Assembly (NCBI GenBank): GCA_934277545.1
Contig: CAKQUG010000002.1
Location: 129,024-193,023 of the forward strand
DNA: 64,000 nt
Reading direction: 5' to 3'
Source of the DNA: an uncultured Alphaproteobacteria bacterium
Lineage (GTDB): Bacteria > Pseudomonadota > Alphaproteobacteria > RF32 > CAG-239
Below are positions 47,365 through 62,426 of this stretch, piece after piece (position 1 is the stretch's first letter; the number at the start of each line of letters is the position of its first letter). Made by a program: the position numbers and the translations under genes. A model generated the notes under the pieces. The model had not been told where the DNA came from, did not search any database, and was given only the letters and a program-made list of their open reading frames with translations.

Positions 47365-47404
47365 AGAGATTAAGCTCAGTGTTCTGCTTAATCTCTGTTT
47401 TTTT
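47365..47404 (+). terminator. Strong intrinsic terminator immediately upstream of the structural-gene cluster
   Basis: Perfect 11-bp stem AGAGATTAAGC / GCTTAATCTCT with a 10-nt loop, then GTTTTTTT. It ends 14 nt before the GroES-like gene RBS (AGGAGA). Confidence 0.75.
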
Positions 47405-47418
47405 AGGAGAAATATAAA

Positions 47419-47664
47419 ATGCTGAAAGCAATAGCAGACAGGCTTATTGTTAAGCCTGATAAAACTTTGCCGTCCGTGTTGATTGGAGTTGAAACTGAAA
47501 AAAAGTTTACTAATCAAGGCGTTGTACAAAGTGTCGGCGACAAGGTAACAATGGCGTCCGTCGGTGAACATATAATTTTTCATCGCTTTGACGAATTGCC
47601 ATTACCGCAGAATGATTTAGTGGTTATTCGGGAAAAAAGCCTTTTGGGCAAAATCTCGGAATAA
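47419..47664 (+). CDS. GroES/Cpn10-like co-chaperonin homolog (phage-encoded, truncated roof hairpin)
   Basis: 81 aa. LKAIADRLIVK matches GroES IRPLHDRVIVK, followed by a mobile-loop-length segment, QSVGDKV (like LAVGNG), ASVGEHIIF (like VKVGDIVIF) and NDLVVIREKSLLGKI (like EEVLIMSESDILAIV). Confidence 0.5.
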   Translation: MLKAIADRLIVKPDKTLPSVLIGVETEKKFTNQGVVQSVGDKVTMASVGEHIIFHRFDELPLPQNDLVVIREKSLLGKISE

Positions 47665-47684
47665 TCTTAATATTTTTTAATCTG

Positions 47685-47722
47685 ACAGACCGTGTAGTTT
47701 TTACCGGTCTGTTTTTGTTTGG
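47685..47722 (+). terminator. Second intrinsic terminator between the GroES-like gene and the portal gene
   Basis: 8-bp stem ACAGACCG / CGGTCTGT with a 12-nt loop, then TTTTGTTTGG. Confidence 0.5.
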
Positions 47723-47731
47723 GAGAAAATT

Positions 47732-49471
47732 ATGGAAAAACAAGATAACAACAAGCTGTATAAAGAGTGGCTTGCCAAAATCCGCTCATCGGAAAAAGCC
47801 TATGAGGATTATTATGAATTGGTTGAGGAAATTCGCAAATATTACCGCAACGAACGAAAACGCAACAAACAAAGCATTTTTTGGTCGTCGGTGGAAACTT
47901 TAAAACCATTTTTATATTTCAAACAGCCGCAGCCTTTTATTATTCGCAGCAACAAAAAGTCAGACGCTGTTGAAAACACCGCTTGCCGAATTTTGGAAAA
48001 GGCGCTGGAATGGGATATGAAACAGTTTGATTTTGACAGTGTCGTCAAATATGCCCGCAATGATTTTTTGCTTTCCGGCATGGGAATTTTGTGGGAGCAA
48101 TATCACTCTAGTTTCAAATATATCGGCAATGTTACTTTAAAAGACAAAGAGCAGGTTACCACTCAATATGTTAATCCGATGTCATTTTTGGCAGATGTCG
48201 ATAAAGTTAATGTTTGGGAAGATGTGGAATGGATTGCCCGCAAAACGTTTATGAACGTTAATGAAATTTATTGTAATTTCGGCGAAGAATTGGCTGATTA
48301 TTTTTGGCAGCATAATTTTACCGATAAAAGTATTTCCGTTTATGAAATTTGGGATAAAAAAACACGCAAAATTTATTATCTGAGCCCAGAATTGCCTGAT
48401 ACTTTTTTACAAATTAACGAAGATACCCTGCATTTGAGCGGATTTTTTCCGTGTCCGAAACCGATTATGGCGACTTTAACCAACGACGGTATTGTTCCGG
48501 TTCCCGATTATGTGGAAATAAAGAGCCTGCTTGATGAACTGGACGGAGTTAACAGCCGCATGCGCTTGACCATGCAGGCGCTGAAAGTTTCAGGCTGTTA
48601 CGACAGTTCTTTTCCGGAACTGGCAAACATTTTGGATAAGGATGTAACGCTGATTGCCTTAAATGATTTTGACAAACTCAAAGACGCCGGCGGCATTAAC
48701 GGAATTATCGATTTTGCACCGATTGAACAATATGTCAACACCTTGCAGGTTTTGGCGGAACGCCGCAAAATTTTGATTGATTCCATTTATGAAGTAACCG
48801 GCGTCAGCGATATTATGCGCGGTGCTTCAAATTCGCAGGACACGGCAACGGCAGTGGTTAAAAAGACCAATTTCGGCACGTTGCGCAATCAAGACCGTCA
48901 AAATGACATGCAGCGTTTTTTGAAAGATTTGCTGCACATTAAAGCCGAGATTATCTGTGAACAATTTTCGCCGGATACTTTGGCGGCTTTTGTGGCGGAT
49001 GAGACGGCGCAAACCCCGGATGTTGTTGCGCATGCTGTCGATTTACTGAAAACTCAAAAACTCCGCGGTATGGTTATTGAACTGGTAACCGACGGCAGTT
49101 TTGATATTGATAAACAGGAAGAAAATGTTTTGCAGGTGCTGGAGCATATTCATGAAATGGTCAGCCAGGCGTTCGGCCTTGTTTCGCAGCAGCCTGCGCT
49201 TTTGCCTTTGTATCGGCAAATGATTGAAGCGGCGGCGGCGACGCTTTCTAATGCCAGACAGTTTGAAAATGTGCTGGAACATGTTTTTGATAAAATCAGC
49301 GCTGAACTGAACGCGCCCGACCCTCAGGTTCAGCAGGCGGAAGACAAGATGGTAGCCTTGCAATCGCAAAAAATACAGCAGGATTTTGCCATTAAACAGG
49401 AACAAAATCAAATCAAGCGCGAAGAGCTGGATTTGAAGAAAATTACTGAATTGAACAAAATTTCAAAATAA
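47732..49471 (+). CDS. Putative phage portal (head-tail connector) protein
   Basis: 579 aa. Its size and position at the head of the morphogenesis block, and its acidic helical C-terminal region, are typical of podovirus portals. There is no definitive motif. Confidence 0.45.
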   Translation: MEKQDNNKLYKEWLAKIRSSEKAYEDYYELVEEIRKYYRNERKRNKQSIFWSSVETLKPFLYFKQPQPFIIRSNKKSDAVENTACRILEKALEWDMKQFDFDSVVKYARNDFLLSGMGILWEQYHSSFKYIGNVTLKDKEQVTTQYVNPMSFLADVDKVNVWEDVEWIARKTFMNVNEIYCNFGEELADYFWQHNFTDKSISVYEIWDKKTRKIYYLSPELPDTFLQINEDTLHLSGFFPCPKPIMATLTNDGIVPVPDYVEIKSLLDELDGVNSRMRLTMQALKVSGCYDSSFPELANILDKDVTLIALNDFDKLKDAGGINGIIDFAPIEQYVNTLQVLAERRKILIDSIYEVTGVSDIMRGASNSQDTATAVVKKTNFGTLRNQDRQNDMQRFLKDLLHIKAEIICEQFSPDTLAAFVADETAQTPDVVAHAVDLLKTQKLRGMVIELVTDGSFDIDKQEENVLQVLEHIHEMVSQAFGLVSQQPALLPLYRQMIEAAAATLSNARQFENVLEHVFDKISAELNAPDPQVQQAEDKMVALQSQKIQQDFAIKQEQNQIKREELDLKKITELNKISK

Positions 49472-49483
49472 AGGAGAATATAA

Positions 49484-50251
49484 ATGCCATACGACAGTAA
49501 CGGATTGTTTACCAGAATGCACAACTGGGAAGACGATAGAAAAAATGAAATAGACATTGTGTCTGACCGGCACGATGAAGAAGACGATAATTTTGCCGAC
49601 GGCTTGAGCGAGTGTTTGTTAAAAGACGGAAGGGCACCGATGAAAGGCGAGCTGAAAATGGGCGGTTTCCAAATCAGAAACCTGGCTAAAGGTACTTCAG
49701 AAAAAGACGCCGTAAATAAAGAACAGCTGGAGGAAACGAAAAAATTGCTTACCGAAGTGATGAATAAAGTTTTTTGTGTGGGCGATATTAAAGCGTCGGT
49801 GCAAACCGCTGACCACGATAATTGGCTTTTATGCAACGGGCATGAAGTAAGCCGCACGGCTTATTCCGAATTATTTGCTTTAATCGGCACTGGTTTTGGT
49901 GCCGGAGACGGCTTAAACACCTTTAATCTGCCGGATTATCGCGGTAAATTTTTGCGTGGTTTGGGCGGAGATTCGGCGCCAAATTTGCAAACAACTCAAG
50001 ATGAAGGCTTGCCGAACATTACCGGTCAGTCTCAGGCGCAGGACGGCTATTTATACGGCACTCCGCCGACAACAGGCGCTATCCGCATGGTTAATCCGCG
50101 TACCGGAAACACTCGTTCCGGCGACGGCGGCGGCGCTTATTATTTTACGTTTGATGCCAGTTTATCAAATTCAATTTACGGTGCCAGCAACCATGTAACG
50201 CCGATAAATCAGGCGGTAAACTATTTTATTAAGGCCAAAAAGGAGGAATAG
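49484..50251 (+). CDS. Phage tail fibre/collar protein with C-terminal Phage_Tail_Collar domain
   Basis: WLLCNGHEVSRTAYSELFALIGTGFGAGDGLNTFNLPDYRGKFLRG matches the tail-collar (PF07484) signature. AGGAGA RBS. Confidence 0.65.
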   Translation: MPYDSNGLFTRMHNWEDDRKNEIDIVSDRHDEEDDNFADGLSECLLKDGRAPMKGELKMGGFQIRNLAKGTSEKDAVNKEQLEETKKLLTEVMNKVFCVGDIKASVQTADHDNWLLCNGHEVSRTAYSELFALIGTGFGAGDGLNTFNLPDYRGKFLRGLGGDSAPNLQTTQDEGLPNITGQSQAQDGYLYGTPPTTGAIRMVNPRTGNTRSGDGGGAYYFTFDASLSNSIYGASNHVTPINQAVNYFIKAKKEE

Positions 50252-50254
50252 GCG

Positions 50255-50614
50255 ATGACTGGAAGAATTTTGCCCGGCGCAGATATTATTGAAGTGCGTC
50301 AGGGCGACAGCTTTAATATAAAATTGCGATTTAAGGCAAAAAATAAAGCATTGGATTTATCTGCTTTAAAAGTAATTATGCAGGTGCGCAAAAACGAAAA
50401 CGATTCTTTGGTTTTTGAAAAAGAGGCCGAAGCGGTTGAGGCGGCTCAGGGAATATATTTGCTGCGTTTGACTCCCGCTGAAACTTCGGCGCCGGCCGGC
50501 AATTATAAAACGGACATTCAGGTAATGTTTGCTAACGGCGAAGTAAACACGATTTTTCCGCAGAGCGTGGCAAAAATCGGAGTGTTTCGTTTAACTCCGC
50601 AAGTAACCAAGTGA
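50255..50614 (+). CDS. Hypothetical phage structural protein (119 aa)
   Basis: Tightly packed between fibre genes. No motif recognised. Confidence 0.4.
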   Translation: MTGRILPGADIIEVRQGDSFNIKLRFKAKNKALDLSALKVIMQVRKNENDSLVFEKEAEAVEAAQGIYLLRLTPAETSAPAGNYKTDIQVMFANGEVNTIFPQSVAKIGVFRLTPQVTK

Positions 50615-50621
50615 GGGACCC

Positions 50622-51590
50622 ATGCAGGAAAATATTATGGCGGTTAACGTTGCCGACGCGCAGACGATTGATGTGTATTGGCAGGATGAAGTTGTTTTTG
50701 ATTTGGATGTGCAGCTGATGTGGATAAAATCCGGTCAGCAGGAGATTAGCAAATATGTCTCTGAAGTCTCGCTGCCGAAAATAGAAGAGTTTGCCGCTCA
50801 AAAAATGACTGATTATGTAGTCAGAGCTGAAAATGCGGCGGTTTCGGCCGAAGATGCAATGATTGAGGCTCAAAAACAGGCCAAAAACACGGCTTTGAAC
50901 CGTGAAATGGCGGAAAACAGCGCTGCAGCGGCGTCGGAAAGCGTAAATAAGGTAACTGCCGAAGCTCAGCAGGCCTTGCAGGAAATGTCCAATTACGCTG
51001 ATACGGTAAAAACTGAAATAAACACGTCGGCAGAAAACGCGAAAACATCTGTTACAAATACTGCGGATAAAGCGGCAGCCGAGGCCGGGAAAAATATAAA
51101 TGACTATGTAGAACAAACGGTAAAACCGGAAATGCAGTCTTATACCGATAAAGCAGAAAATGCCGCGTCTTCGGCTGCTGCAAGTGCAGCGTCGGCAAAG
51201 GAAAACGCGGCGGCAGCGGCGGACAGTATGCAAAACAAAGCCGATACCGACGCTGCTGATTTTTCGGCAGCCGGAAAAAGTTTGCTGTCCGGTTTAAGCC
51301 TGCCGGGCGGCAAATTGGTTGATTTGACTTTTTCACACGGTCAGAACTATACGGCACCGGCAAACGGATATTTTGCTTTGCAGGGATATATGAGTAATCC
51401 GACTTTCAGTAGCGTTATCGGTTTGTATAACGAGACCGGAAAATTCGGCATGAGTGTTCAAACTCCGGGAGCAGAAGTTTCAAAACGAGATGTTTTTATT
51501 CCGGTTTCAAGAGGCGATGTCGTCCAGGCTTACGGCTATAAAGCGACTGTAACGTATCTTAAATTTATTTATGCGCGGGGAGAAGTGTAA
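50622..51590 (+). CDS. Phage tail fibre protein with Ala/Ser/Asn-rich coiled-coil shaft
   Basis: Repeated AENAA(V/S)SA..., AENSAAAASESV and AENAASSAAASAASAKENAAAAADS heptad-like segments resembling the T7 gp17 / lambda Stf shaft. C-terminal globular tip. Confidence 0.5.
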   Translation: MQENIMAVNVADAQTIDVYWQDEVVFDLDVQLMWIKSGQQEISKYVSEVSLPKIEEFAAQKMTDYVVRAENAAVSAEDAMIEAQKQAKNTALNREMAENSAAAASESVNKVTAEAQQALQEMSNYADTVKTEINTSAENAKTSVTNTADKAAAEAGKNINDYVEQTVKPEMQSYTDKAENAASSAAASAASAKENAAAAADSMQNKADTDAADFSAAGKSLLSGLSLPGGKLVDLTFSHGQNYTAPANGYFALQGYMSNPTFSSVIGLYNETGKFGMSVQTPGAEVSKRDVFIPVSRGDVVQAYGYKATVTYLKFIYARGEV

Positions 51591-51968
51591 ATGTTTATCG
51601 CATTAAAAGACAATAAAATAATAGCATATAATAAAACAGGGGAATTTCCTTGTTTGGTTTGTGATGAAATTAAAGAAACAGAAAATATGGATTTGCTGAA
51701 TGTCGGCGAAGAGTTTTTACCAAAGACGGATGAACGCGCCGTTGCAAAAATTAAAGAGGATATTCGGGCGGTGCGTAACTTTTATTTGCGTGAGACCGAT
51801 AAATATATGATTGCAGATTATCCGCTGACCGAAGCAGAGCGGCAGAGCATTAAAGCGTATCGGAAGTATCTGCGGGATTATACTTTAGCCGAAAATTGGT
51901 GGCAAACCGAACCGCTAGGCTTTGGAGAATGGACCAATGTGGTAACAAATAATAAGTTAAACGGATAA
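51591..51968 (+). CDS. Tail fibre assembly protein-like (Tfa/Caudo_TAP-like C-terminus)
   Basis: C-terminal IKAYRKYLRDYTLAENWWQTEP resembles the conserved Tfa end (WKKYRVLLNRVD..AP.IEWP). It lies immediately downstream of a fibre gene, and its start overlaps the fibre gene's stop codon. Confidence 0.45.
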   Translation: MFIALKDNKIIAYNKTGEFPCLVCDEIKETENMDLLNVGEEFLPKTDERAVAKIKEDIRAVRNFYLRETDKYMIADYPLTEAERQSIKAYRKYLRDYTLAENWWQTEPLGFGEWTNVVTNNKLNG

Positions 51969-52037
51969 AGCCGGTTGCAACTTCAAGGACAACAAGTGAG
52001 ATTAAAATATGTTTTTTTATAATATTTAAGAGGTTCT

Positions 52038-52331
52038 ATGATTGATGATTTAAAAACAATCGTGCTGTTTGTGCTGATGGCGATTGCGTCGGCCTACGTG
52101 CACTACAAAGGCTTTTTTCAAGCCACTCTGGACGCCGTGCTGGCGTTTTGCATGGGTTACATAATGTATTTACTTTTAGATTATGCCGCACTTTCGGGAG
52201 CAACGAGAAGCGGCATTTCTTGTGTGGTGATTTTATTCAGCCGTTCTCTATATGAGTGGGGAAACGAATTTATCAAAACTAAATTATCGGCTTTAATAGC
52301 CGGAAAGGCGGGAAAAAATGACAGAGAATGA
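52038..52331 (+). CDS. Holin (two predicted TM helices, charged C-terminus)
   Basis: 97 aa with two hydrophobic helices and a KAGKNDRE tail. Its 3' end overlaps the endolysin start by 14 nt. Confidence 0.55.
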   Translation: MIDDLKTIVLFVLMAIASAYVHYKGFFQATLDAVLAFCMGYIMYLLLDYAALSGATRSGISCVVILFSRSLYEWGNEFIKTKLSALIAGKAGKNDRE

Positions 52332-52749
52332 TTTGCAGATTTTGGCACGCACTTTGTTTGGAGAAGCACGAGGCGAGGGCGATGAAGGATTGGAGGCTGT
52401 GGCATGTGTGATTATGAACCGATTTAAGGCAAACAAATGGTATACCGGTTATGAAATACACAACGGTAAAAAAGTTCCGAGCGTGGCGCAGACTTGTTTG
52501 AAAAAAGCGCAGTTCAGTTGCTGGAATAAAAATGACCCTAATTATAAGCAGTTGAATCAAAAAACAATTATTGCTTACGGATTTCAAAAATGCCTGCAAG
52601 CGGCGCAAAAAGCCTTGTCAGGAAATTTGCAAGATTTTACCAACGGTGCGCTGTTTTATCATACCAAACAGATAAAACCTAAGTGGGCAGTCGGCAAAAC
52701 TCCGTGTTATGTTGCCGGCAACCATCTGTTTTATAACGACATTGAATAG
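52318..52749 (+). CDS. Cell-wall hydrolase, SleB/Hydrolase_2 family (endolysin)
   Basis: ARTLFGEARGEG...AVACVIMNR...ALFYH motifs match PF07486. Confidence 0.7.
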   Translation: MTENDLQILARTLFGEARGEGDEGLEAVACVIMNRFKANKWYTGYEIHNGKKVPSVAQTCLKKAQFSCWNKNDPNYKQLNQKTIIAYGFQKCLQAAQKALSGNLQDFTNGALFYHTKQIKPKWAVGKTPCYVAGNHLFYNDIE

Positions 52750-52758
52750 GGAGGATCA

Positions 52759-53034
52759 ATGGCTAAGAAAAAATTGAAAGCGTATTCTTTCAGTGAAAGC
52801 CTGGAAATGCTGAATCGTCTGCAGCAAATGGCTGTTGATGAAGGTAATATCAATTTGGCTTTGAAAGCAGAAGAGTTGAAATGTAAAATTGCCGCTATGC
52901 AGACGGATAAAGAAAGTTCGCAATCGGCGGAAAATTTAACAAAAATATTGGTGGATTTTATAAATGACAAACAAAATGATTGCAAAAATACCGAAAATTT
53001 TTGCGCCTCTGATGAAGCTGAAACGCCGCTATAA
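52759..53034 (+). CDS. Hypothetical protein, possible terminase small subunit
   Basis: 91-aa helical protein immediately upstream of, and overlapping, the large terminase. The assignment is positional only. Confidence 0.3.
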   Translation: MAKKKLKAYSFSESLEMLNRLQQMAVDEGNINLALKAEELKCKIAAMQTDKESSQSAENLTKILVDFINDKQNDCKNTENFCASDEAETPL

Positions 53035-54289
53035 ACTTTATTACGGCGGACGGGCCGGCGGAAAATCGTATGCTTTTGCCGACAGCCTGCTGTTTTTGGG
53101 GCGGATGAAAAAACTTCGGATTGCCTGTATGCGCGAGGTGCAGGACAGTATTAAAGATTCTGTTTACAAACTCTTAAGCGATAGGATTAGTTTTTATGGC
53201 TTAACTGATTATAAAATCAGCGAAACTAAGATTGTAAACCGGCTGAGCGGTACGGCTTTTATATTTAAAGGCTTGCGCGAGCAAGATTCAAACAATATCA
53301 AGTCTTTGGAAGGCATAGATATTGTATGGCTGGAAGAAGCGCAGAAAATCAGCAAAAAAAGCTGGGATATTTTAGACCCGACAATTCGTAAAGCCGGTTC
53401 GGAAATTTGGATTTCTATGAACAGAGAAGAAGAAAACGACCCGGTTTGGCTGGCTGTCGGCGCAAAACCTGACGAGCGGACTTTGGTTGTTAAGGTCAAC
53501 TATACCGATAATCCGTTTTGTCCGGAAGAAATGCGTTATCTGGCGCAAAAATGTCAAAAGGAAAATCCCGAAGACTATAATCATATTTGGCTTGGTGCTC
53601 CGGTTTCTGTTGGCAGTTATAAACTTATTGCGCCGAAGTTGGTGCGTCAGGCTTTTGAAACCAAACTTGAAAATCCGTCATCGCCGCTGATTATCGGGCT
53701 GGACGTGGCGCGTTTCGGCGATGATAAAAGCGTGTTTTGCTTTCGACGCGGGCGAGTGTGTTTGTTTTTTGAAAGCTATGCCCGTTTGGATAATGTGGAA
53801 GTGGCAAATCGAGCCACTTTTTTTATCCGCCAATATAAACCGGCGCGGGTGTTTGTTGATGCCGGCGGCGTGGGCGGCGGTGTGGTGGATATTTTGAACG
53901 ACCGCGGTTTTAAGCGGATAGTGCGGCCGATTATGTTCGGAGCCAAGGCGTTGGCTGACGACCGCTATCATAACCGCCGCGCTGAAATGTGGGACGAACT
54001 GCGGATATGGCTGAGCGGAGAGCAAAAGGTTGAACTGCCGAATGATGAAAATTTGGCAAACGAACTTTGTGCCGTTAACAAAAAATATGACAGCCGAGGG
54101 CGCTTGCAGCTGGAGGAAAAAGAAGAAATTAAAAAACGGTTGGGCAAGTCGCCGGATATGGCGGACGCATTGGCGCTGACTTTTGCCGAGCCGGTTTTTG
54201 AACGGCCGGACACAGAGTGCGGACGTCTGCCGGGCGACAGCATAGAAAGTATGTTTCGCGCCAATAAATCCACCGATGATAAATGGTAA
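52964..54289 (+). CDS. Phage terminase large subunit (PBSX/XtmB-like)
   Basis: Walker A YGGRAGGKS near the N-terminus, and a C-terminal RNaseH-like nuclease region with acidic residues (IGLDVARFGDD, VDAGG). An alternative start is ATG 53012. Confidence 0.8.
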   Translation: MTNKMIAKIPKIFAPLMKLKRRYKLYYGGRAGGKSYAFADSLLFLGRMKKLRIACMREVQDSIKDSVYKLLSDRISFYGLTDYKISETKIVNRLSGTAFIFKGLREQDSNNIKSLEGIDIVWLEEAQKISKKSWDILDPTIRKAGSEIWISMNREEENDPVWLAVGAKPDERTLVVKVNYTDNPFCPEEMRYLAQKCQKENPEDYNHIWLGAPVSVGSYKLIAPKLVRQAFETKLENPSSPLIIGLDVARFGDDKSVFCFRRGRVCLFFESYARLDNVEVANRATFFIRQYKPARVFVDAGGVGGGVVDILNDRGFKRIVRPIMFGAKALADDRYHNRRAEMWDELRIWLSGEQKVELPNDENLANELCAVNKKYDSRGRLQLEEKEEIKKRLGKSPDMADALALTFAEPVFERPDTECGRLPGDSIESMFRANKSTDDKW

Positions 54290-54318
54290 TTTAATTAAAA
54301 GAAAAAGGAGAAAATAAA

Positions 54319-54987
54319 ATGACTTATAGACCAAGAATGGTACGTGAAAACGAGGCTTACGGCTGGTTGCCAGAAGATGAAGCCTATGGCAGAGTTTCTA
54401 ATGTTTCTACACAGCAGGAACAGGAAGATGAAAACGCTTACAGCGACAATGAACTTGCTCCGGAAAGAAGTTTTGAAGAACAAAAACTATTTGAAAGAGT
54501 GCAAAATGATCCAGATTGGTGGAGTAAAAATTCAGGTTTAAGAGCAAGTTTTGATGGTTATAATTTTTTTGTTAAAAATAATGGAGAATTAATAGGAGAA
54601 TATCCGGCGATTTCAGGAAGAGATGAATATCAAACAAAAGAAGCGACTATTTTTCAAGATAGAGGTCCTATTCCCGAAGGTTCATACACATTAAATTATA
54701 ATGATTATGAAATGTATGATGAAAATAAAGCTAAAGAAGGTGGGCGTTTTAGTTGGATGAATAAACCGGATAGTTGGGGAAGTGAACGTTTAGCTATTAC
54801 AGCAGATAAAAATACCAATACTTATGGAAGAGGTGGATTTTATGTTCATGGTGGTAGTACACCAGGTTCTAATGGTTGTATAGATTTAACAACTTATATG
54901 CCTGACTTTGGTAAGATTGTTAGAGAATATCAAGAAGATATTCCCCTTATTGTTAAATATCGAGATGATTTTGGTGAAAAAAAATAA
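54319..54987 (+). CDS. Tlde1/DUF2778-like (YkuD L,D-transpeptidase-fold) domain protein, candidate peptidoglycan-targeting effector
   Basis: C-terminal GGFYVHGGSTPGSNGCIDL contains the His ... S-x-G-C-I catalytic signature of L,D-transpeptidase-like enzymes. GC falls from about 45% to about 30% from about 54480 onward. Confidence 0.4.
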   Translation: MTYRPRMVRENEAYGWLPEDEAYGRVSNVSTQQEQEDENAYSDNELAPERSFEEQKLFERVQNDPDWWSKNSGLRASFDGYNFFVKNNGELIGEYPAISGRDEYQTKEATIFQDRGPIPEGSYTLNYNDYEMYDENKAKEGGRFSWMNKPDSWGSERLAITADKNTNTYGRGGFYVHGGSTPGSNGCIDLTTYMPDFGKIVREYQEDIPLIVKYRDDFGEKK

Positions 54988-55015
54988 AAGAATAGCTTGC
55001 ATTTAAGATATATTT

Positions 55016-55417
55016 ATGTATTATATTGGTGTAAATACAATTATATGGTGTGTAATGAGTGATAAGTTAAAAAGTATGATAAAAGAAAATCCAGAATTGA
55101 TAATGATATTTTTTATAATCTTAATATCATTTATAACAAGTATTTTTTGTTTTCGAGATTATGTATATCGTCAACGAGATATGAGTTTGCATATATGGAA
55201 TTTAACTTTGCATTGGCGTACTATATCAATTATAATACATAACATAGTATATATAATGTTGGCAGTTTCATTTTTCTTTGTGCCGCACAGAATTAAATTT
55301 ATGTATATAGGATTTATTGTTGGATATTTTTTATTTTGTTCAAATCATAATTGTTTTATGGCTATAAATTCCAAAAATGAAGTTTTATGGACTTTAGGGA
55401 GCGTTTGGTTAAAATGA
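55016..55417 (+). CDS. Polytopic membrane protein (low-GC moron)
   Basis: 133 aa, at least 3 hydrophobic helices, GC about 28%. Confidence 0.45.
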   Translation: MYYIGVNTIIWCVMSDKLKSMIKENPELIMIFFIILISFITSIFCFRDYVYRQRDMSLHIWNLTLHWRTISIIIHNIVYIMLAVSFFFVPHRIKFMYIGFIVGYFLFCSNHNCFMAINSKNEVLWTLGSVWLK

Positions 55418-55767
55418 TTCTACAAACATGGGATTATAAAGTTGTCAAACTCTTATTTATAGGCTTTTTAACTATATCAGTTGTTTTAGTTGTCGAGGGT
55501 TTACTGCATTATTTTCTTGCACCGGATACGCCAAAGACAAATGAAATTTTAGCTGCAATATTTATGCACTTAATTCCTTGTCTGTATATTCCATTGATAG
55601 GTTTGTGGTGTTTGCCGCGTCATTTGAATATGGGATATTTTTTGTGCGGAGTAGATGTTGTATATTTAATATTTCAACTACATTGTTTACTGTATCGCTA
55701 TCTATGGCCGGATTATGGTGATTGGTGGATTTGGAAATATACTATAGGTAAGTTATTTAAGGAATAA
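55387..55767 (+). CDS. Polytopic membrane protein (low-GC moron)
   Basis: 126 aa, 3-4 hydrophobic helices. It overlaps the preceding ORF by 31 nt. GC about 28%. Confidence 0.45.
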   Translation: MDFRERLVKMILQTWDYKVVKLLFIGFLTISVVLVVEGLLHYFLAPDTPKTNEILAAIFMHLIPCLYIPLIGLWCLPRHLNMGYFLCGVDVVYLIFQLHCLLYRYLWPDYGDWWIWKYTIGKLFKE

Positions 55768-55773
55768 AAATAT

Positions 55774-55998
55774 ATGAAACGGGTATTTTATTTTGCAGCA
55801 GCATTTATCGTTTTGGCGGTTATCGGTTTTGTCGGATATTTGTTTTTTGATAAACAAGCCTATTGCTTGGATATTGGAAAAATCTATGATTCGGTGCAAA
55901 AAATCTGCCGTGATGACTGCTTGAGTTGGAACGATCAAACCGGCTGCGTGCCGATAACAGATGAAAACCGGCAGAAAAAAGCCGCCGGAAAACTGTAG
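55774..55998 (+). CDS. Small signal-anchored Cys-rich protein (4 Cys), candidate periplasmic immunity/accessory protein
   Basis: 74 aa with an N-terminal TM/signal anchor and four Cys (CLD...CRDDC...GC). Confidence 0.4.
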   Translation: MKRVFYFAAAFIVLAVIGFVGYLFFDKQAYCLDIGKIYDSVQKICRDDCLSWNDQTGCVPITDENRQKKAAGKL

Positions 55999-56013
55999 AA
56001 AATAATCATTGGC

Positions 56014-56049
56014 TTTATGGAACAAACGCTTTGTTTAACTGAAAACAAG
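56014..56049 (+). terminator. Rho-independent terminator closing the moron cassette
   Basis: 13-bp stem AAACGCTTTGTTT / AAACAAGGCGTTT (one mismatch), loop AACTGA, then TTTT. Confidence 0.55.
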
Positions 56050-56080
56050 GCGTTTTTTTATACCCGAAATTTGGAGAAAG

Positions 56081-56311
56081 ATGATGACCTACATCAGCAG
56101 GCAATTCGCGGAAGAGGTGCTTCTTCCGGACGGATCTGTCGCGTCTTCTGTCGCGGACGTTGACAAGTATTTACGCGCCACGGGCTTAGCTCTGGCCGGC
56201 GACTATTCAGCCGAATATTATCAAAATATTCGCAATCAACAAGAAAGAGAACGGCAGCAATCTTTGTTTGCCGATTTTCTTTATAACTACAAAAGGATGA
56301 TATGGAAATGA
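56081..56311 (+). CDS. Hypothetical phage protein (76 aa)
   Basis: ORF with a GGAGAAAG RBS. Its 3' end overlaps the next gene. Confidence 0.35.
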   Translation: MMTYISRQFAEEVLLPDGSVASSVADVDKYLRATGLALAGDYSAEYYQNIRNQQERERQQSLFADFLYNYKRMIWK

Positions 56312-57177
56312 ATGATTTAAGAAAAGAACTTGAACGTCAGTTCAAAGCGTTCGGTTTATCTGAGCCGGACAAAAAAACAATAGATGAAATTCCGGCGGAA
56401 GCTGATGAGAATGCTCAAAACGGGCTGATTGCCGCTCCTGCCGATTTTGAACCGGAATATGCGGCGGCGTTCAGCGAACTTTCGCCCAAGTGGCAGAATT
56501 ATTTAAACAAGCGAGAAGAAAAACTAAAAGCCGAGCGCAAGGAATTGTCGGCAAAAATCGGGCTTTTGGACAGCCTGAAAAATTTGGACGGTGCTTTTCA
56601 AAAACGTAAAACCGAAAACAACATACATAGCTTGCGCGAATGGCTGGAAGGTTTGGTTTATATTGACGAGCAAATGCACCGCCGTCCGGTGGAAACCTTA
56701 AACGCCATTGCTCAGGTGTTTAAGGTAAAGGCGCAGTTTACCGAAACTCCGCAAACCGAAATTTCTGACCGAATTTTAAAAAGACTGACGGAACTCGATT
56801 TGAGTTTTCACAGCCTCCGAGACTATTTGCAGCAAAGCGAACAGAAAAGTTTTTACAGTCAAATACAAGACTTCGGTCTGCAAAAAGATGAAACAGGACA
56901 TCTGCTTCATCCGTATTTTGACGCTGTTTACAAACAAATGCAGACTTTGTTGCAAAACGGACTGGCTTCAAGCATTGAAGACGCCTACAAGCAGGCGGTT
57001 TGGCTTAATGCCGATGTCCGTAAAGAGCTGATTGCCAAACAAATCAACTCTGACGCTGCCGAAGCGCAAAAGGCGCAGAAAGCGGCGTTTTCTCCGAAAG
57101 GAAAAGCAAAAGCGCCGGAAAGACCTCTGACTTTGAGGGAAGAAATTGAAAAAAATATGGCTGCTTTTTTGGATTAA
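56302..57177 (+). CDS. Putative scaffolding protein
   Basis: 291-aa charged, helical/coiled protein immediately upstream of the putative major capsid gene. Confidence 0.4.
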   Translation: MEMNDLRKELERQFKAFGLSEPDKKTIDEIPAEADENAQNGLIAAPADFEPEYAAAFSELSPKWQNYLNKREEKLKAERKELSAKIGLLDSLKNLDGAFQKRKTENNIHSLREWLEGLVYIDEQMHRRPVETLNAIAQVFKVKAQFTETPQTEISDRILKRLTELDLSFHSLRDYLQQSEQKSFYSQIQDFGLQKDETGHLLHPYFDAVYKQMQTLLQNGLASSIEDAYKQAVWLNADVRKELIAKQINSDAAEAQKAQKAAFSPKGKAKAPERPLTLREEIEKNMAAFLD

Positions 57178-57201
57178 CTTAAAATTTTAAAAGGATAAAA
57201 A

Positions 57202-58167
57202 ATGATAAATAAAGATTATAATGAAGTGTTTACCGTAACTTTGAACAACCGTTCAAAAGAAATGGCTGATAATATTTCTAAAAATAATGCGCTTTTAACC
57301 CGCTTAAAAGACAAGGGCAAAATGCGTCAGCTGACCGGCGGTGTAAAAATTTTGGAAGAACTGGAATACGGCGAGGGCGATATGGTATGGTATTCAGGTT
57401 ATGATACCATTAACTATACTCCTAAGCAACTGTTTACGGCTGCTGAATATGCACTAAAACTGTGTGCGGTACCGGTGGCTGTTTCCGGTGAAGAATTACT
57501 GATGAACAGCGGTCCGGAACAAGTTATGGATTTGTTTGAAAAACGTATTTCCAATGCTGAAAAAACTTTGAAAAATCAAATGTCAGTTGCTTTGTACAGC
57601 GATGGCACCGGTTCTTCGGGTAAGGAAATCGGCGGTTTGGCTTTGCTGGTTGCCGATGATCCGACTTCCGGCACGGTCGGAGGTATTGACCGTTCGGCTG
57701 CCGGAAGCGAATTTTGGCGCAACCAATCAGTTAGTGCGGATATTGATTCATCCAACATTCGCCAGATGATGAACAGCTTGTATCACAAATGCTGCCGCAA
57801 TTCTGACAAACCGGATTTGATTGTCTGCGATGACGCTTTGTATACTTTGTTTGATGAATCTTTGTCGGTTTTACAGCGTTTCTCTGACCCTAAAATGGCG
57901 GACGCCGGTTTTACCAGCCTCAAATTCAAGGGCGCCGATGTAATTTTTGACGGCGGCCAGGGCGGTCATTGTCCGGAAAAACACATGTACTTTTTGAACA
58001 CTAACTACATTTATCTGCGTACTCATAAAGATCGCAATATGAAAATTATCGGTGGCGACAGATTAGCGATAAATCAGGATGCGCTATATCGCATTATCGG
58101 TTGGGCCGGCAATATGACTATGTCTAACGCGGCGGTTCAAGGCGTGTTGATTAACACTAAAGAATAA
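57202..58167 (+). CDS. Putative major capsid protein
   Basis: 321 aa following the scaffold-like gene. Strong GGAT-rich RBS. No decisive motif. The assignment rests on size and position. Confidence 0.45.
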   Translation: MINKDYNEVFTVTLNNRSKEMADNISKNNALLTRLKDKGKMRQLTGGVKILEELEYGEGDMVWYSGYDTINYTPKQLFTAAEYALKLCAVPVAVSGEELLMNSGPEQVMDLFEKRISNAEKTLKNQMSVALYSDGTGSSGKEIGGLALLVADDPTSGTVGGIDRSAAGSEFWRNQSVSADIDSSNIRQMMNSLYHKCCRNSDKPDLIVCDDALYTLFDESLSVLQRFSDPKMADAGFTSLKFKGADVIFDGGQGGHCPEKHMYFLNTNYIYLRTHKDRNMKIIGGDRLAINQDALYRIIGWAGNMTMSNAAVQGVLINTKE

Positions 58168-58253
58168 TCGTTAAACCACAGAAAAGGAGTGAAATAAAAA
58201 AATCACTCCTTTTCAAATCGTTACAAAAATAAGATAAAGTAAAGGAATAGACT

Positions 58254-58838
58254 ATGGATATGGATTTTGCCTTGTTTCAACAGGTAATCGGCGCAAAAGA
58301 AACCGAAAAAAACGTGGCGGCGAGATTTTATGACAAAGCCGTTAAAACCAGTGAAGTGTCGGCTAACGGTTTGCCGATTTTTAAAAATGTTACATATATT
58401 GAAATCCGCTTGAAAGATAATAACACTGAAGTATTTAATCAGCCGGCGACAGCGGAAAAAATTCGGCGTTTTCCGCAGGAATACGCGTTGTATCAGCTTT
58501 CTAAAAAGCAAGCAGAAAACGGTACTCCGCTGGAACAGTTTGCCTTTTTGACTGCGGCGGAAATTGCCACTTGTAAAAGCCGTGGCGTGTTTACGGTGGA
58601 AACTTTAGCAGGTTTGGATTTTGATAAAGTGCAAAGCCTGGGCTTGCAGGATGAGCATGTTTTAGCGCAAATGTTTTTGGAAAAATCAGAAAATAACAAA
58701 ATGTTAGACGATTTTGCTAAAAAAGAGCTTGAATATGAAAGAGAAATTGAATCTTTGCGCGAACAGCTGGCAGCCATGCAAAGAGCGCTTAGTGAAGAGC
58801 GTAAAAAACATGCCGACGCCAAAGCAGGAGAAAAATAA
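58254..58838 (+). CDS. Hypothetical phage structural protein (194 aa; coiled-coil C-terminus)
   Basis: Downstream of the capsid gene. Coiled C-terminal segment (ELEYEREIESLREQLAAMQRAL). Confidence 0.35.
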   Translation: MDMDFALFQQVIGAKETEKNVAARFYDKAVKTSEVSANGLPIFKNVTYIEIRLKDNNTEVFNQPATAEKIRRFPQEYALYQLSKKQAENGTPLEQFAFLTAAEIATCKSRGVFTVETLAGLDFDKVQSLGLQDEHVLAQMFLEKSENNKMLDDFAKKELEYEREIESLREQLAAMQRALSEERKKHADAKAGEK

Positions 58839-59560
58839 TGAAGACAATTTTGGAAATTTGCCGCGAGGTTGCGGATTTGGCAGCGACCAAGCGCCCGAAT
58901 GATTTATTTGATGCCAACAGCCAGCAGGAAAGTATTTTTTTGAGCGTGGCAAAATCGGCTCTCGACAGTCTGCTGCGTTACGGCGATTGGCAGGAGCTGA
59001 CAAAAGAAGGATGTCTGCGCACGGTTGAGGGACGTACTCAATATCCTATTTCCGAGTTTTTGCCGGATTTTTTTTGTCTTCTGAACAATACGATTTTTAT
59101 TAAAGACGGCAAAGAACGCATAATCGGCGCCATTACGCCGGAACAATGGATGCGGGAAAAATATTTTTCCAGTCCGAGCAATGAATTGAAATTTAAAATT
59201 CAAAACGGACGTTTTGTGTTTTTAACTCCTCCGGCCGGTGGTTTACGGATTGTTTTTCAATATCGCTCCAACGGAATTGTTTGGGATTTTGATACATTTG
59301 AAGAAAAAAGTTCGCTCACCGCCAATACTGATGTTCCGGTTTTTGACGAATATCTGGTTAAGCTGAATATTTTATGGCGGTGGCTGAAACGCAGCGGATT
59401 GGACTATGGCGAAGAATATGATGAATTTCAGCGCGAATTGAAAAAGCGTTTTGGTTCCGAACACGCCGCTGCCAACATAAATTTGACAAAGTCGGATAAC
59501 GGTTTGAGCGAAACAGGAGTAATAATCAATGAAGTTAAAATTAGCAGTACGGGGCAATAA
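58838..59560 (+). CDS. Hypothetical phage structural protein (240 aa)
   Basis: Translationally coupled (ATGA overlap) with the upstream gene. Confidence 0.35.
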   Translation: MKTILEICREVADLAATKRPNDLFDANSQQESIFLSVAKSALDSLLRYGDWQELTKEGCLRTVEGRTQYPISEFLPDFFCLLNNTIFIKDGKERIIGAITPEQWMREKYFSSPSNELKFKIQNGRFVFLTPPAGGLRIVFQYRSNGIVWDFDTFEEKSSLTANTDVPVFDEYLVKLNILWRWLKRSGLDYGEEYDEFQRELKKRFGSEHAAANINLTKSDNGLSETGVIINEVKISSTGQ

Positions 59561-61088
59561 GTCGGTAAGCTATACTTTGCCGGCACCGATAAAAGGTTTG
59601 AATGTGCGCGACGGTTGGGCGAATATGGACGCAGGTTACGCCATTGTGATGGATAACTATATGCCGCTGGACACTAAAGTGGCGCTGCGTAAAGGTTATG
59701 TTGAATATGTAGGGTTGCCGGAAAAAGTATGTACGCTGACCGAATATAAAGTCGGCGGCAACAATTATTTTATAGCTGTTTCCGGCGGCGCTGCCTATAA
59801 CATCAGCTCGCGCAAAAATATTTACGTCTATGAAAATGTTAAGTTTACAAACAGTTATTGCCGTACTCAGCAATACAAAAACTATTTGTATTTTGTGAAC
59901 GGTAGCGATACCCCGAAAGTTTATTACCGCGGTGAAGATGGAACCGAGCATTTTGAAGATTGGGGCTTTACGGCCGAAAATTTGAATGCCACCCGTATTG
60001 CCGGTGTCGGACTTTCCAAGCAGCGCTTGTGGTTTATCGAAAGCGGCACTCTTAAAGTCTGGTATCCCGAAACCGCCGGCAATATTGCCGGAAAGCTGAA
60101 TTATTTTGATTTAGCGCAGGTTGCGCGTTTCGGCGGCGAACTGGTGGCGGTTGCCAACTGGACGCAGGACGGCGGGCAGGGAATTGACGATTTGACGGTG
60201 TTTATCACTTCAGAAGGCGAAGCGCTGGTTTATGTGGGGTCGGATATTAACAATGCCGATAGCTGGCAGCTGCGCGGTTCCTATAAAATCAGTCGTCCGA
60301 TTGGATATGATTGCCTGGTGCCGTATCAAGGCGATGTGGTGATAATTTCCGAAGATGGCTATATTCCGCTGTCCAAAGCCTTGCCGCTGGAACAGGCCAA
60401 CGCTTCGCAAATTGCGTTCAGCGATGCCATCCGTGGGTTGGTGTTATCGCGGACTGCGCATAATTTGAAACGTTATGGCTGGCAGGGTGTAATTTACAGC
60501 CGCGGCGGTTATGGATTGTTTAATGTTCCGGTATCTAATCAATACGAACAGCATGTTATCAATTTAAATACCGGGGCTTGGTGCCGTTTTACCGGCATCC
60601 GCGCGCATTGTTGGGGGTTATATAATCAGCGGCTTTATTTCGGTTCGGACCGAGGTGTTTATTTGTTTGATGAAAGCTATGCGGATAACGGCACCGAAAT
60701 CAGCGGCTGCGTGGAGCAGGCGTATAATGATTTAGGCAGTAACAGTGTTAAAAAAATTCAGCTGCTTAATCCCCGCACCAAATCAAGCACCGGGTATTCA
60801 TTGGTTATTTATACCAATATGGATATGGAAAGCCGTAAAATTGACTATCAGGAAAACTTATCGTCTTCCGGCTTGCACAAGTGGAATGAAACCAAATGGT
60901 CGAGTTCGTTTAATCCGCTTGGTATCAAGTGGGGAGCTGCCGACAGCACTTCAATCCGCAGTCAGTGGATAGCCAATTCTGCCACCGGCTACAAAGCCGG
61001 CATAGTGTTTAAAACCAAAACCAAAGGCAATTTGATAGAATGGTTTGAAACCGGTATTCGCTATGAAGTAGGGAGCGGCGTGCTATGA
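59529..61088 (+). CDS. Phage structural protein (519 aa; beta-rich, possible tail tubular/nozzle or receptor-binding protein)
   Basis: Large protein rich in Gly/aromatic residues, in the late block. No motif recognised. Confidence 0.35.
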   Translation: MKLKLAVRGNKSVSYTLPAPIKGLNVRDGWANMDAGYAIVMDNYMPLDTKVALRKGYVEYVGLPEKVCTLTEYKVGGNNYFIAVSGGAAYNISSRKNIYVYENVKFTNSYCRTQQYKNYLYFVNGSDTPKVYYRGEDGTEHFEDWGFTAENLNATRIAGVGLSKQRLWFIESGTLKVWYPETAGNIAGKLNYFDLAQVARFGGELVAVANWTQDGGQGIDDLTVFITSEGEALVYVGSDINNADSWQLRGSYKISRPIGYDCLVPYQGDVVIISEDGYIPLSKALPLEQANASQIAFSDAIRGLVLSRTAHNLKRYGWQGVIYSRGGYGLFNVPVSNQYEQHVINLNTGAWCRFTGIRAHCWGLYNQRLYFGSDRGVYLFDESYADNGTEISGCVEQAYNDLGSNSVKKIQLLNPRTKSSTGYSLVIYTNMDMESRKIDYQENLSSSGLHKWNETKWSSSFNPLGIKWGAADSTSIRSQWIANSATGYKAGIVFKTKTKGNLIEWFETGIRYEVGSGVL

Positions 61089-61528
61089 ATGATGAATATG
61101 AAATTCTGCCCGATAAAAACAATATTATCGCCAAATGGGTTTGCAAGGGTTTAGGCGAGGGCACTGATTGGCTTGACCAGTATATAACTTATGGTTTTGC
61201 CCAAGGCGGAAAAATGCTCGGCGGCTTAATTTTTCACAGCTATCGTCCTAACACCGAAGTTTGGTGGACAGTATACACCGTTGACAAACGTTGGTGTAAC
61301 CGCCGCATGTTAAAAGTTATGTTTGACATCGCTTTTAACAAATTAAAATGCCGGCGCATATCGCTTTTAGTCAGCAAAAGTAATGTCGCCGGCATAAATT
61401 TTGTAAAGAAACTTGGATTTCAGCAAGAAGGAATGTTCAGAGTCTATCGTGAAAACGGGGAAGATTGTTACATTTTCGGTATGCTGAAAAACGAATGTAA
61501 ATGGATTAAAAATGGAGAAAATAAATGA
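61085..61528 (+). CDS. GNAT-family N-acetyltransferase
   Basis: Acetyl-CoA binding pattern (RRISLLVSKSNVAGINFVKKLGFQQEG). It has 4-nt overlaps with both neighbouring genes. Confidence 0.55.
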   Translation: MNDEYEILPDKNNIIAKWVCKGLGEGTDWLDQYITYGFAQGGKMLGGLIFHSYRPNTEVWWTVYTVDKRWCNRRMLKVMFDIAFNKLKCRRISLLVSKSNVAGINFVKKLGFQQEGMFRVYRENGEDCYIFGMLKNECKWIKNGENK

Positions 61529-62190
61529 GTAAATCAATTGGCAAAGTTTTTGCAAATTCTTCAACCGATAAATACGGTTATGAAAAGAACTATTTGAATT
61601 ATTTAGGTAATTACGATACTTCAAATTATGACAATACATTGAAAAATATGACAGGTCAGGCTTTTGACATGAGTAAAAATTTGAGCAGGATGCCGGAATA
61701 TCAGTTTTCGATAAACGGCTCGGATGACGCTCGTCAGCGCATGGAAAACGCCGTATATCAATCGGCAGTGGACAAACTTAATCCGCAATATCAGCAGCAG
61801 CGCGCCGATTTGGAAACAAGTTTGGCCAACAAAGGTATCAGCGTTGGCAGCGAGGCTTATCAGCGTGCGATGAACAACTTGCAGCAAAAACAGAATGAGG
61901 CGCTTAATCAGGCGGCTTATCAAAGTATTGCGGCCGGGCAGGGTGCTTATAGCCAAAGTTTGAACGATAGTATCAATAGCGCAAATTTCAATAATAATTC
62001 GCAGTTGAACTACATTCAGCAAATTAAAGCGCTGTTGGAAGGCTCTGTTTCAGGTTATCAGAATCAGGCAAATTTGTATAATGTTAACAAAAATGTCGAG
62101 AATCGCCAGACCTCGGCTCGCCAAAGCGGGTGGAATAATATGTTTAAAACTGCAGAAATCACCGAAAAACTTGCTGATACATTTAAATAG
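61525..62190 (+). CDS. Hypothetical Gln/Asn-rich phage protein (221 aa)
   Basis: Low-complexity Q/N/S-rich sequence. It is the last gene of the phage block before a stem-loop. Confidence 0.35.
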   Translation: MSKSIGKVFANSSTDKYGYEKNYLNYLGNYDTSNYDNTLKNMTGQAFDMSKNLSRMPEYQFSINGSDDARQRMENAVYQSAVDKLNPQYQQQRADLETSLANKGISVGSEAYQRAMNNLQQKQNEALNQAAYQSIAAGQGAYSQSLNDSINSANFNNNSQLNYIQQIKALLEGSVSGYQNQANLYNVNKNVENRQTSARQSGWNNMFKTAEITEKLADTFK

Positions 62191-62426
62191 CTTGTCAATG
62201 TCGGCTGTAAAAACCTAAATAATATAAAAAACTCGGAAGTAGTTTTTTTTAATGAAACTCCATCGGCTTATGCCGGTGGAGTTTCATGGTGTTGATGAAG
62301 AGGGTGGTTCATATTTTAAAAGCTATTTAACAAAGCAGTTTGCAGATAATTTCTTATCCTTTTTTGATAATCACAAAACTTTTGTTTTTGCAACTCCTTA
62401 AAAACATACATACAAAACTTTAATCA

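Follow-up and report, generated by a model that had tools for sequence, protein, structure and literature searches.

Tlde1 enzymes are known as toxins of the bacterial cell wall that are delivered by a type VI secretion system (T6SS). In the founding Tlde1 paper, the enzyme was toxic in the periplasm alone, cognate immunity genes lay adjacent, and orphan immunity genes outlasted loss of the effector; in the third family, the immunity proteins contain at least one transmembrane (TM) domain. Toxicity of Tlde1a is periplasmic and is exerted via LD-carboxypeptidase or exchange activity. Described polymorphic toxins of phages, such as the MuF toxins and Bxa, act in the cytoplasm, and phage genes with the DUF2778 domain, e.g., gp41 of phage JC1 (PMC9144972), are annotated only, their function not having been studied. 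Here, we describe a Tlde1-type gene in a 64,000-nucleotide stretch of DNA (the window) from an uncultured Alphaproteobacteria bacterium (contig CAKQUG010000002.1, positions 129,024 to 193,023). The gene belongs to a phage-like element of approximately 16 kb and lies in an accessory segment (54290..56080) between the stop codon of the large terminase gene (TerL) and the start of gene p76; coordinates written with two dots refer to the plus strand. We consider it moderately probable that this locus represents a polymorphic effector-immunity cassette that is carried by a phage and belongs to the Tlde1 (DUF2778) family.

The first gene of the segment, open reading frame (ORF) 1 (54319..54987), has a good ribosome-binding site (RBS; aaaggaga) and encodes a 222-aa protein composed of a leader and a Tlde1-family LD-peptidase domain. 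Pfam searches matched Tlde1_dom (PF10908) at 41.9 bits over residues 95-194 (gathering cut-off, GA, 30.1) and YkuD at 36 bits (GA 23.4). The best sequence match in the PDB was Salmonella Tlde1a (7UMA), with approximately 23% identity. The motif GGFYVHGGSTPGSNGCIDL was found in ORF1, and the catalytic stretch RGGFYVH(177)GGSTPGS(184)N(185)GC(187)IDL (54829..54888) aligns with RGGFYIH(121)DSTKGYS(128)H(129)GC(131)IEV of Tlde1a with the same H-x9-C spacing. Both residues of the catalytic dyad are retained among 68 homologs, in which C187 is invariant, as are S184 and G186, and H177 is conserved in at least 90%. Position 185 is Asn in ORF1, Ala in most close homologs, and His129, a residue of the catalytic pocket, in Tlde1a. 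The H129A variant of Tlde1a performs D-amino-acid exchange at the wild-type level, loses most of its crosslinking, and loses part of its carboxypeptidase activity.

An AlphaFold2 (AF2) model of ORF1 was built from the 68 homologs and had a mean predicted local distance difference test score (pLDDT) of 80.9, with values of about 50 for residues 1-50 and mostly above 90 for residues ~72-215. The latter form a domain with the Tlde1/LD-transpeptidase fold (54532..54963). In a Foldseek search against the PDB, the top three matches were structures of Tlde1a (7uo8, 7uma, and 7uo3; E-values 2e-8 to 7e-8, TM-score 0.62 on the target), followed at lower ranks by Bacillus subtilis YkuD and mycobacterial LD-transpeptidases (LdtMt). 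By sequence and modeled fold, ORF1 is a member of the Tlde1/DUF2778 family. A first-pass annotation of the window had already assigned a Tlde1/YkuD-type enzyme without a signal peptide, and both parts of this assignment hold; a hydropathy scan detected no hydrophobic N-terminal segment, TM segment, or signal peptide. PADLOC and NCBIfam gave no match for ORF1-4, and PHROGs returned just two families of unknown function for ORF1 (E = 0.001). Phage_Mu_F (PF04233) was absent from ORF1 in a Pfam search at E-values up to 1. Around the gene are phage genes for terminase, portal, capsid, tail, and lysis, bordered by priA and a type I restriction gene; no T6SS genes were found in the element or its immediate flanks. 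Judged from its domains and context, ORF1 is neither a MuF toxin nor a T6SS effector.

The catalytic domain belongs to a block of foreign composition (54481..55767) that also includes ORF2 and ORF3. In 100-nt windows, the G+C fraction (GC) is 0.42-0.62 upstream, 0.19-0.37 from ~54500 to 55850, and 0.42-0.49 from 55850 onward. The block as a whole has a GC of 0.294, compared with a mean of 0.421 for the 64-kb window (z = -3.95); this is the global minimum, and no other equally long stretch has a GC below 0.345. At third codon positions, GC (GC3) is 0.11 for residues 55-222 of ORF1, 0.20 for ORF2, and 0.27 for ORF3, against 0.36-0.51 for every backbone gene. Neither the leader of ORF1 (GC3 0.33) nor ORF4 (GC3 0.44, GC 0.413) shares the anomaly, and the break at ~54480 coincides with codon 54/55 of ORF1. 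The compositional island therefore comprises three genes, not four, because ORF4 is not low in GC. The first-pass annotation had described a four-gene, low-GC moron between the terminase and the scaffold/capsid genes, with an uneven GC profile, a drop near 54480 after about 55 normal codons of the first gene, and its own terminator at 56014-56049. The four genes, the uneven profile, the position of the drop, and the moron were all recovered. Low GC applies to the C-terminal part of ORF1 and to ORF2 and ORF3, and not to ORF4, and the terminator is present at a position a few bases away. It consists of an intrinsic-terminator-like hairpin with a T run (56024..56062) that closes the accessory segment, in which a 13-bp stem with 4 GC pairs and a 6-nt loop (56024-56055) is followed by TTTTTTT.

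TerL was scanned against one genome per species, which yielded 78 loci at 57-95% TerL identity, nearly all from uncultured Alphaproteobacteria of the gut or rumen; loci from this and other searches are cited by L numbers. The variable part of the element is the interval that follows TerL. In seven relatives with 76-87% TerL identity (L018, L019, L020, L021, L023, L024, and L081), TerL and p76 are separated by 4-41 bp, compared with 1791 bp in the window. The segment is accessory, because TerL directly abuts p76 in such relatives. The terminator hairpin is missing where the two genes abut and is kept in L016 and in L073, which holds a stub of ORF1 only. In the clade of the window (TerL at least 92% identical), the cassette occurs in varying states. 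In a distant clade, the interval holds a GroES-like gene and the portal gene, at times with extra genes.

Within the close clade, the Tlde1 domain, ORF2, and ORF3 occur as two alleles, type A (window and L017) and type B (L014, L010, and L002). Type B is 69-71% identical to the window in ORF1 and 69-72% in ORF3, and its ORF2 is just 67 aa long, corresponding to residues 70-133 of the window protein at 63% identity. Nucleotide identity between the window and L017 is 94-98% in the cassette and 80-88% in the backbone; between the window and L014, the corresponding values are 68-75% and 85-92%. Synonymous divergence (dS) follows the same inversion. Relative to L014, dS is 1.16 for the Tlde1 domain and 1.34 for ORF3, compared with 0.61 for TerL, and relative to L017, it is 0.11 and 0.16, compared with 1.07 for TerL. 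Since the identity and dS profiles invert, the alleles are older than the backbones that carry them and have been moved by recombination. The left breakpoint of this exchange is the leader/domain junction, exactly at the GC drop. From these profiles, the type-A cassette moved intact and recently between diverged backbones. In intact copies, the ratio of nonsynonymous to synonymous divergence (dN/dS) reaches 0.11-0.20 in the Tlde1 domain and 0.14-0.19 in ORF3, which indicates purifying selection on these copies; the value for the C-terminus of ORF2 between the window and L017 was disregarded as a coordinate artefact.

The leader (residues 1-54, 54319..54480; motif ENEAYGWLPEDEAYGR) behaves differently from the domain. 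It is predicted to be disordered (pLDDT ~50), follows the backbone with 76-91% identity, and persists in toxin-less loci as a stub ORF of 55-62 aa. The enzyme is inactivated in 10 of the 14 species-representative loci of the close clade. In nine of them, leader residue 54 is fused in-frame to the final eight residues within an ORF of 60-62 aa (...APERSEEE|YRDDFGKK), and in the tenth (L011), a truncated stub of 55 aa is present. DNA alignment identified the ...EEE|YRDDFGKK form as an in-frame deletion in the type-B allele with 3 bp of microhomology and a type-B 3' flank. A separate in-frame deletion, ...ENAY|MPDFGKIV, occurred in type A (P0158 and P0160), and further inactivations include a frameshifted form (P0161), a nonsense variant (L002), and 55-aa truncations. 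According to these alignments, loss of the catalytic domain has recurred, with at least two of the losses due to separate in-frame deletions, and the membrane-protein genes were often kept. The stub was also considered as an ancestral small gene that later received the domain. This was rejected, as the junction has type-B sequence on both sides, including the 3' flank, with AAT microhomology; the stub is a deletion derivative, because type-B sequence flanks the junction even on an L017-like backbone. A leader that tracks the backbone, joined to a domain with two divergent alleles that are exchanged between backbones and deleted in-frame, bears out the C-terminal domain swap that had been suggested from the GC drop.

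Searching a collection of 5.8 billion proteins with the leader retrieved 36 clusters, all of 45-76 aa and mostly of the stub form, one of which was found on 135 contigs. Searches of IMG/VR found no close relatives of ORF1, its leader, or P0022. The leader is joined to a different cargo domain in one clear case, a 315-aa protein of L086 with a lysozyme/pesticin-like domain, whose N-terminus matches the first 25 residues of the leader at 13 of 25 positions (52%; pairwise E 6e-6). Kinship of the leader to MuF-type or 'PIKREN...YYY' leaders (L029, L039, L047, and L086) was rejected at an hhalign probability of 0.1%.

Two overlapping genes for polytopic membrane proteins follow ORF1, as had been noticed at first pass and as hydropathy and an ATGA overlap bear out. 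ORF2 (55016..55417) encodes 133 aa, or 120 aa from an alternative start at Met14 (55055); a weak RBS leaves its start codon uncertain. Two hydrophobic segments are clear in ORF2, and a third, C-terminal and conserved in the family, is below the threshold. ORF3 (55414..55767) encodes a membrane protein of 117 aa (126 aa from 55387) with three hydrophobic segments, and the 117-aa start creates the ATGA overlap with the stop codon of ORF2, i.e., a coupled start. Neither protein has a match in Pfam, PHROGs, NCBIfam, or PADLOC, DUF2195 included, and a homolog search with ORF3 returned seven matches, every one inside the lineage. Both genes adjoin the toxin gene, co-vary with the Tlde1 allele, and are kept as orphans: ORF2 (as ORF2') and ORF3 are retained in five loci that lack the toxin domain (L008, L009, L012, L013, and L063). 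Other toxin-less loci retain ORF4 alone, or nothing. On the basis of this arrangement, ORF2 and ORF3 are probably the cognate immunity proteins of ORF1.

Beyond three full-length relatives, homologs match the Tlde1 domain of ORF1 alone, at approximately 40% identity. Their domains occur in fusions with Phage_Mu_F, RHS, the eCIS core domain, LysM, or PG_binding_1, the pattern of polymorphic toxins, and outside the lineage, the nearest Tlde1 domains are found in MuF fusions. In all four sampled non-phage relatives (L004, L115, L116, and L117), a polytopic membrane protein of ~100 aa is encoded next, although in L115 its gene is uncalled. Homology among ORF2, ORF3, and the 3-TM partners of chromosomal Tlde1 genes was not detectable, with hhalign probabilities of 1%, 0.2%, and 0.3%. 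In gut Alphaproteobacteria, the chromosomal loci L004-L007, L115, L116, and L117 encode Tlde1 proteins, MuF-Tlde1 fusions among them, amid housekeeping genes with no evident prophage, and each is followed by such a membrane protein; in L004 and L116, a Phage_lysozyme gene is near the pair of Tlde1 and membrane-protein genes. A profile search of IMG/VR yielded 23 contigs with Tlde1-like domains, all distant from ORF1. The IMG/VR contig L086 is a relative of the element itself, with a major capsid protein 76% identical to that of the window. It encodes a 282-aa Tlde1 protein at a different junction of modules, with g221 on one side and the collar fibre gene on the other. Next come three paralogous membrane proteins in tandem, of 114-125 aa and with a common ETFKLLWQFKWY motif (L086:6654-7794), an arrangement that resembles an immunity-gene array. 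The 315-aa protein encoded after these three scores 23.2 bits for the pesticin/lysozyme-like domain, just below the GA of 25.8.

Other genes also occupy the hot spot after TerL, among them a MuF protein (L039), a protein with an SLT domain (L047), serum-amyloid-A-like (SAA-like) proteins, and unannotated soluble proteins. Several of these alternative genes likewise precede polytopic membrane proteins (L029, L039/L047, and L067/L069). The genes directly after TerL in L039 (11413-12276) and L047 (11332-12189) have their first ~65 residues in common. The L039 protein continues into a Phage_Mu_F domain (51 bits) and a coiled coil, the L047 protein continues into an SLT lytic-transglycosylase domain, and both genes are followed by the same 164-aa 4-TM protein. 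Compared by sequence, L039 and L047 are a second polymorphic series at this site.

In an effector-immunity cassette, the disordered 54-residue leader would belong to the phage backbone and would be followed by a Tlde1-type LD-carboxypeptidase/LD-transpeptidase domain with Cys187 as the nucleophile and His177 as its partner. By analogy with Salmonella Tlde1a, this domain would act on the fourth residue of the tetrapeptide stems of peptidoglycan, either trimming or exchanging it, and would do harm in the periplasm alone. ORF1 should thus be harmless in the cytoplasm of its producer, because it has no signal peptide. It would reach other cells only after lysis by the holin and endolysin of the element, or as cargo of a particle, and would then attack the stem peptides of cells without ORF2 and ORF3, which in the inner membrane would protect sibling lysogens. 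The membrane-protein genes that are retained after toxin loss correspond to the orphan-immunity pattern of the founding Tlde1 paper, and the TM domains of third-family immunity proteins provide a precedent for immunity in the membrane. Several points weigh against such a cassette. There is no evident route through the outer membrane of the target for a 25-kDa protein freed by lysis, and no promoter was identified for expression of the immunity genes during lysogeny, as a scan gave 17 sigma-70-like matches against 15.9 expected by chance in AT-rich DNA with a model that is not alphaproteobacterial. The partner-family argument is purely architectural, because homology was not detectable (hhalign at most 1%), and physical linkage alone could explain the co-variation of ORF2 and ORF3 with the toxin. 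L039 and L047 share their downstream membrane protein despite different C-terminal domains. In addition, the chemistry of ORF1 may differ from that of Tlde1a, given that Asn185 replaces His129.

The main rival, which we regard as possible and clearly less probable, is that ORF1 is a wall-remodeling enzyme of the virion. Its leader would load it into the capsid or portal, its release into the periplasm upon ejection would aid DNA entry, and ORF2 and ORF3 would serve superinfection exclusion or lysogen protection. Such a role would suit the missing signal peptide and the location in the head-morphogenesis module directly after TerL, where L039 encodes a genuine Phage_Mu_F head protein and L047 joins the shared N-terminus to an SLT lytic transglycosylase. 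MuF fusions as the nearest outgroup and the ORF1-type leader on a pesticin/lysozyme-like domain in L086 point in the same direction. However, the catalytic domain is dispensable, being deleted or absent in most close relatives while their structural genes are still 85-97% conserved, and the leader has no detectable relation to MuF (no Pfam match; hhalign 0.1%). A different proposal is an auxiliary lysis or export module in which holin-like ORF2 and ORF3 pass the signal-less ORF1 to the periplasm of the producer late in induction, where it would weaken or edit the wall alongside the SleB-type endolysin. A signal-less peptidoglycan enzyme with small 3-TM proteins encoded after it, one from a translationally coupled start, would be expected of such a module, and the Phage_lysozyme genes near the Tlde1/membrane pairs of L004 and L116 are in keeping with it. 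We nevertheless judge it unlikely. A holin-like gene and an endolysin are already present in the element (52038-52749), neither ORF2 nor ORF3 matches a holin family in Pfam or PHROGs, and their C-termini are not highly charged. Membrane genes that outlive the enzyme, and the tandem paralogs of L086, suit immunity better, and the known Tlde1 chemistry blocks crosslinking rather than causing lysis directly.

That the segment is merely decaying, horizontally acquired DNA without function in the present genome is very unlikely. Foreign composition and the deletions, frameshifts, or nonsense mutations of ORF1 in most relatives would be explained in this way, but the four ORFs of the window are intact with conserved catalytic residues, intact copies have a dN/dS of 0.11-0.20, and the type-A cassette was recently transferred intact. 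A more far-reaching proposal, which we consider quite unlikely, is that the 'EAYG' leader is a particle-loading signal for interchangeable peptidoglycan-attacking domains (Tlde1, or the lysozyme/pesticin-like domain of L086). The element would then be a repressor-controlled, chromosomally fixed, podovirus-like and possibly PBSX- or gene transfer agent (GTA)-like locus, its particles would be weapons that deliver toxin, and the polytopic membrane proteins would form a novel class of immunity proteins against Tlde1.

ORF4 (55774..55998) encodes 74 aa with an N-terminal TM anchor and a 4-Cys domain and is a separate accessory gene. The first-pass annotation had included it in a four-gene unit. 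This view could not be maintained, as ORF4 has the composition and conservation of the backbone (85-93% identity across the clade) and occurs without the toxin and elsewhere, namely with a stub alone in L016 and L076 and upstream of the small terminase gene (TerS) in L029. Its family comprises 75 representative clusters with the pattern C-x13-CRxDC-x8-C, in which C31, C45, and C49 are invariant and C58 is conserved. The AF2 model has a pLDDT of 89 and no fold match in the PDB, and Pfam matches of ORF4-like repeat proteins were rejected as spurious. By sequence, ORF4 is outside the toxin unit and a member of its own widespread TM + 4-Cys family. SAA-like proteins (PF00277, 48-60 bits) fill the hot spot in two distant clades (L011:11704-12267 and L031:12408-13417; also L030, L032, and L035), each directly before an ORF4-like gene, and the ORF4-like genes of L011 and L031 adjoin the SAA-like genes. 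Since ORF4-like proteins directly follow SAA-like genes, the ORF4 of the window may be what remains of a pair whose SAA-like gene was lost.

The element extends over ~45990-62200 (~16 kb) and comprises a regulator and head, tail, and lysis genes. TerL (52964..54289; Terminase_3 6.8e-35, phrog_3717 1e-55) forms the left flank of the accessory segment. The right flank (56081..58167), syntenic in all relatives, consists of p76, a putative scaffold gene (56302-57177), which is labeled from its position and has no family match, and the gene for the major head protein (57202-58167; phrog_9953, 4.8e-107). The set common to all relatives is compact and podovirus-like (~16-17 kb): portal (phrog_12082, 4.7e-112), collar fibre, holin-like gene, SleB-type endolysin, TerS, TerL, putative scaffold gene, major head protein, tail proteins, and a GNAT acetyltransferase. 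The latter (Acetyltransf_4; 61085-61528 in the window) is located within the block of structural genes, between g519 and g221, in all relatives, and a GroES/Cpn10-like gene (PF00166, 47 bits in L031) directly precedes the portal gene throughout the family (window 47419-47664; L031:9964-10221). The flanks of the element are priA (43756-45927) and, on the minus strand, a type I restriction gene (62427-63998). Every relative with at least 75% TerL identity whose locus extends that far has priA next to the element, and PriA identity tracks TerL identity. No integrase, replication genes, or nearby tRNA were found in the ~16-kb element, which could be either an integrase-less phage or a particle locus that has been domesticated (PBSX- or GTA-like). 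A protein with a CI/LexA-type helix-turn-helix and a Peptidase_S24 domain is the divergent regulator of the distant clade, and ordinary chromosomal genes lie on its flanks.

A comparison of window 47732-62190 to L030, L034, L027, and L086 showed that clades differ by permutation of the module order. Distant-clade loci have the order TerS-TerL-GroES-portal-p76...g221-collar...lysis, and the clade of the window has GroES-portal-collar...lysis-TerS-TerL-[cassette]-p76...g221. In L027, the order is lysis-[cassette]-p76...g221-TerS-TerL, with the cassette between the endolysin gene and p76. The cassette is at a module junction in every order compared. A 17-kb 'Bacteriophage sp.' scaffold from human faecal samples (L119; MT835830.1, 1-16998) is collinear with the whole element and has the ancestral gene order, with TerS first and the endolysin last. 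A genome of the size of the element has thus been recovered alone, because the ends of this scaffold are the ends of the element. Its TerL-portal interval encodes a 579-aa hot-spot protein with no Pfam family, whose N-terminus (MSYDRFRNQREAYEE) is faintly like the ORF1 leader. Some records that carry the element are labeled Bacteroidaceae, [Ruminococcus] gnavus, Eubacteriales, or Acutalibacteraceae (L013, L014, L015, L062, and L073), and in L013-L015, the neighboring priA is 96-97% identical to that of the window. These labels probably reflect metagenomic mis-binning of alphaproteobacterial contigs.

At first pass, the architecture could not be placed in any family known to the annotator; comparison with known systems shows that it can be placed. 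ORF1 resembles Tlde1a of the Tlde1a/Tldi1a pair (Tae5/Tai5; Salmonella Typhimurium SPI-6 T6SS, 7UMA) in its PF10908 domain, its S-x-G-C motif, and its status as an effector without a signal peptide, and its expected target is likewise the tetrapeptide stem of periplasmic peptidoglycan. Tlde1a loci also retain orphan immunity genes after effector loss, as the candidate immunity genes are retained here. Unlike Tlde1a, ORF1 is encoded in a phage head module, has an extra 54-residue leader and a linker, and carries Asn in place of H129. Tldi1a is a Sec-exported DUF2195 protein encoded upstream, whereas the candidate immunity proteins of this locus are polytopic membrane proteins encoded downstream. 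The third Tlde1 family (Tae7/Tai7, DUF2778 superfamily), compared by its description, is T6SS- or Rhs-associated and not phage-associated. Among phages, DUF2778 gp41 of Burkholderia podophage JC1 (PMC9144972) is also a Tlde1-domain gene near the terminase of a podovirus. However, gp41 and the Tlde1-like ORFs of IMG/VR are mostly stand-alone domains of 120-136 aa without a leader, and no partner membrane proteins were noted for them.

If the cassette reading is correct, phage-mediated interbacterial antagonism would extend to periplasmic effectors that target peptidoglycan. ORF2 and ORF3 would then be candidate membrane-embedded Tlde1 immunity proteins, and the strains with related loci, some with the toxin, some without it, and some with immunity genes only, would provide a natural series for testing how such cassettes are maintained. 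Together with the MuF-Tlde1 fusions and the IMG/VR matches, the locus shows that the Tlde1 domain has been recruited by phage-like elements of abundant uncultured gut Alphaproteobacteria. The locus shares its organization with the MuF polymorphic toxins (Jamet et al. 2017, PMC5576092), which are encoded in the head module beside the terminase or portal gene, join a conserved N-terminal part to a variable C-terminal toxin, and are followed by small ORFs. ORF1 differs in having no MuF domain, and the text of PMC5576092 nowhere mentions peptidoglycan or transpeptidase. The Bxa/Bsi/BAH system of a Bacteroides stercoris prophage (PMC11699363) is likewise a prophage-encoded polymorphic toxin of a gut bacterium; the conserved N-terminal domain of the toxin is dispensable, and two immunity proteins are cognate to the toxin. 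Unlike ORF1, Bxa is an ADP-ribosyltransferase that acts in the cytoplasm, its immunity proteins are soluble, and the two toxins have no sequence relationship. In the best-supported reading, ORF1 would work as a phage polymorphic toxin in a manner similar to MuF toxins and Bxa, but with a peptidoglycan domain that is proposed to act in the periplasm.

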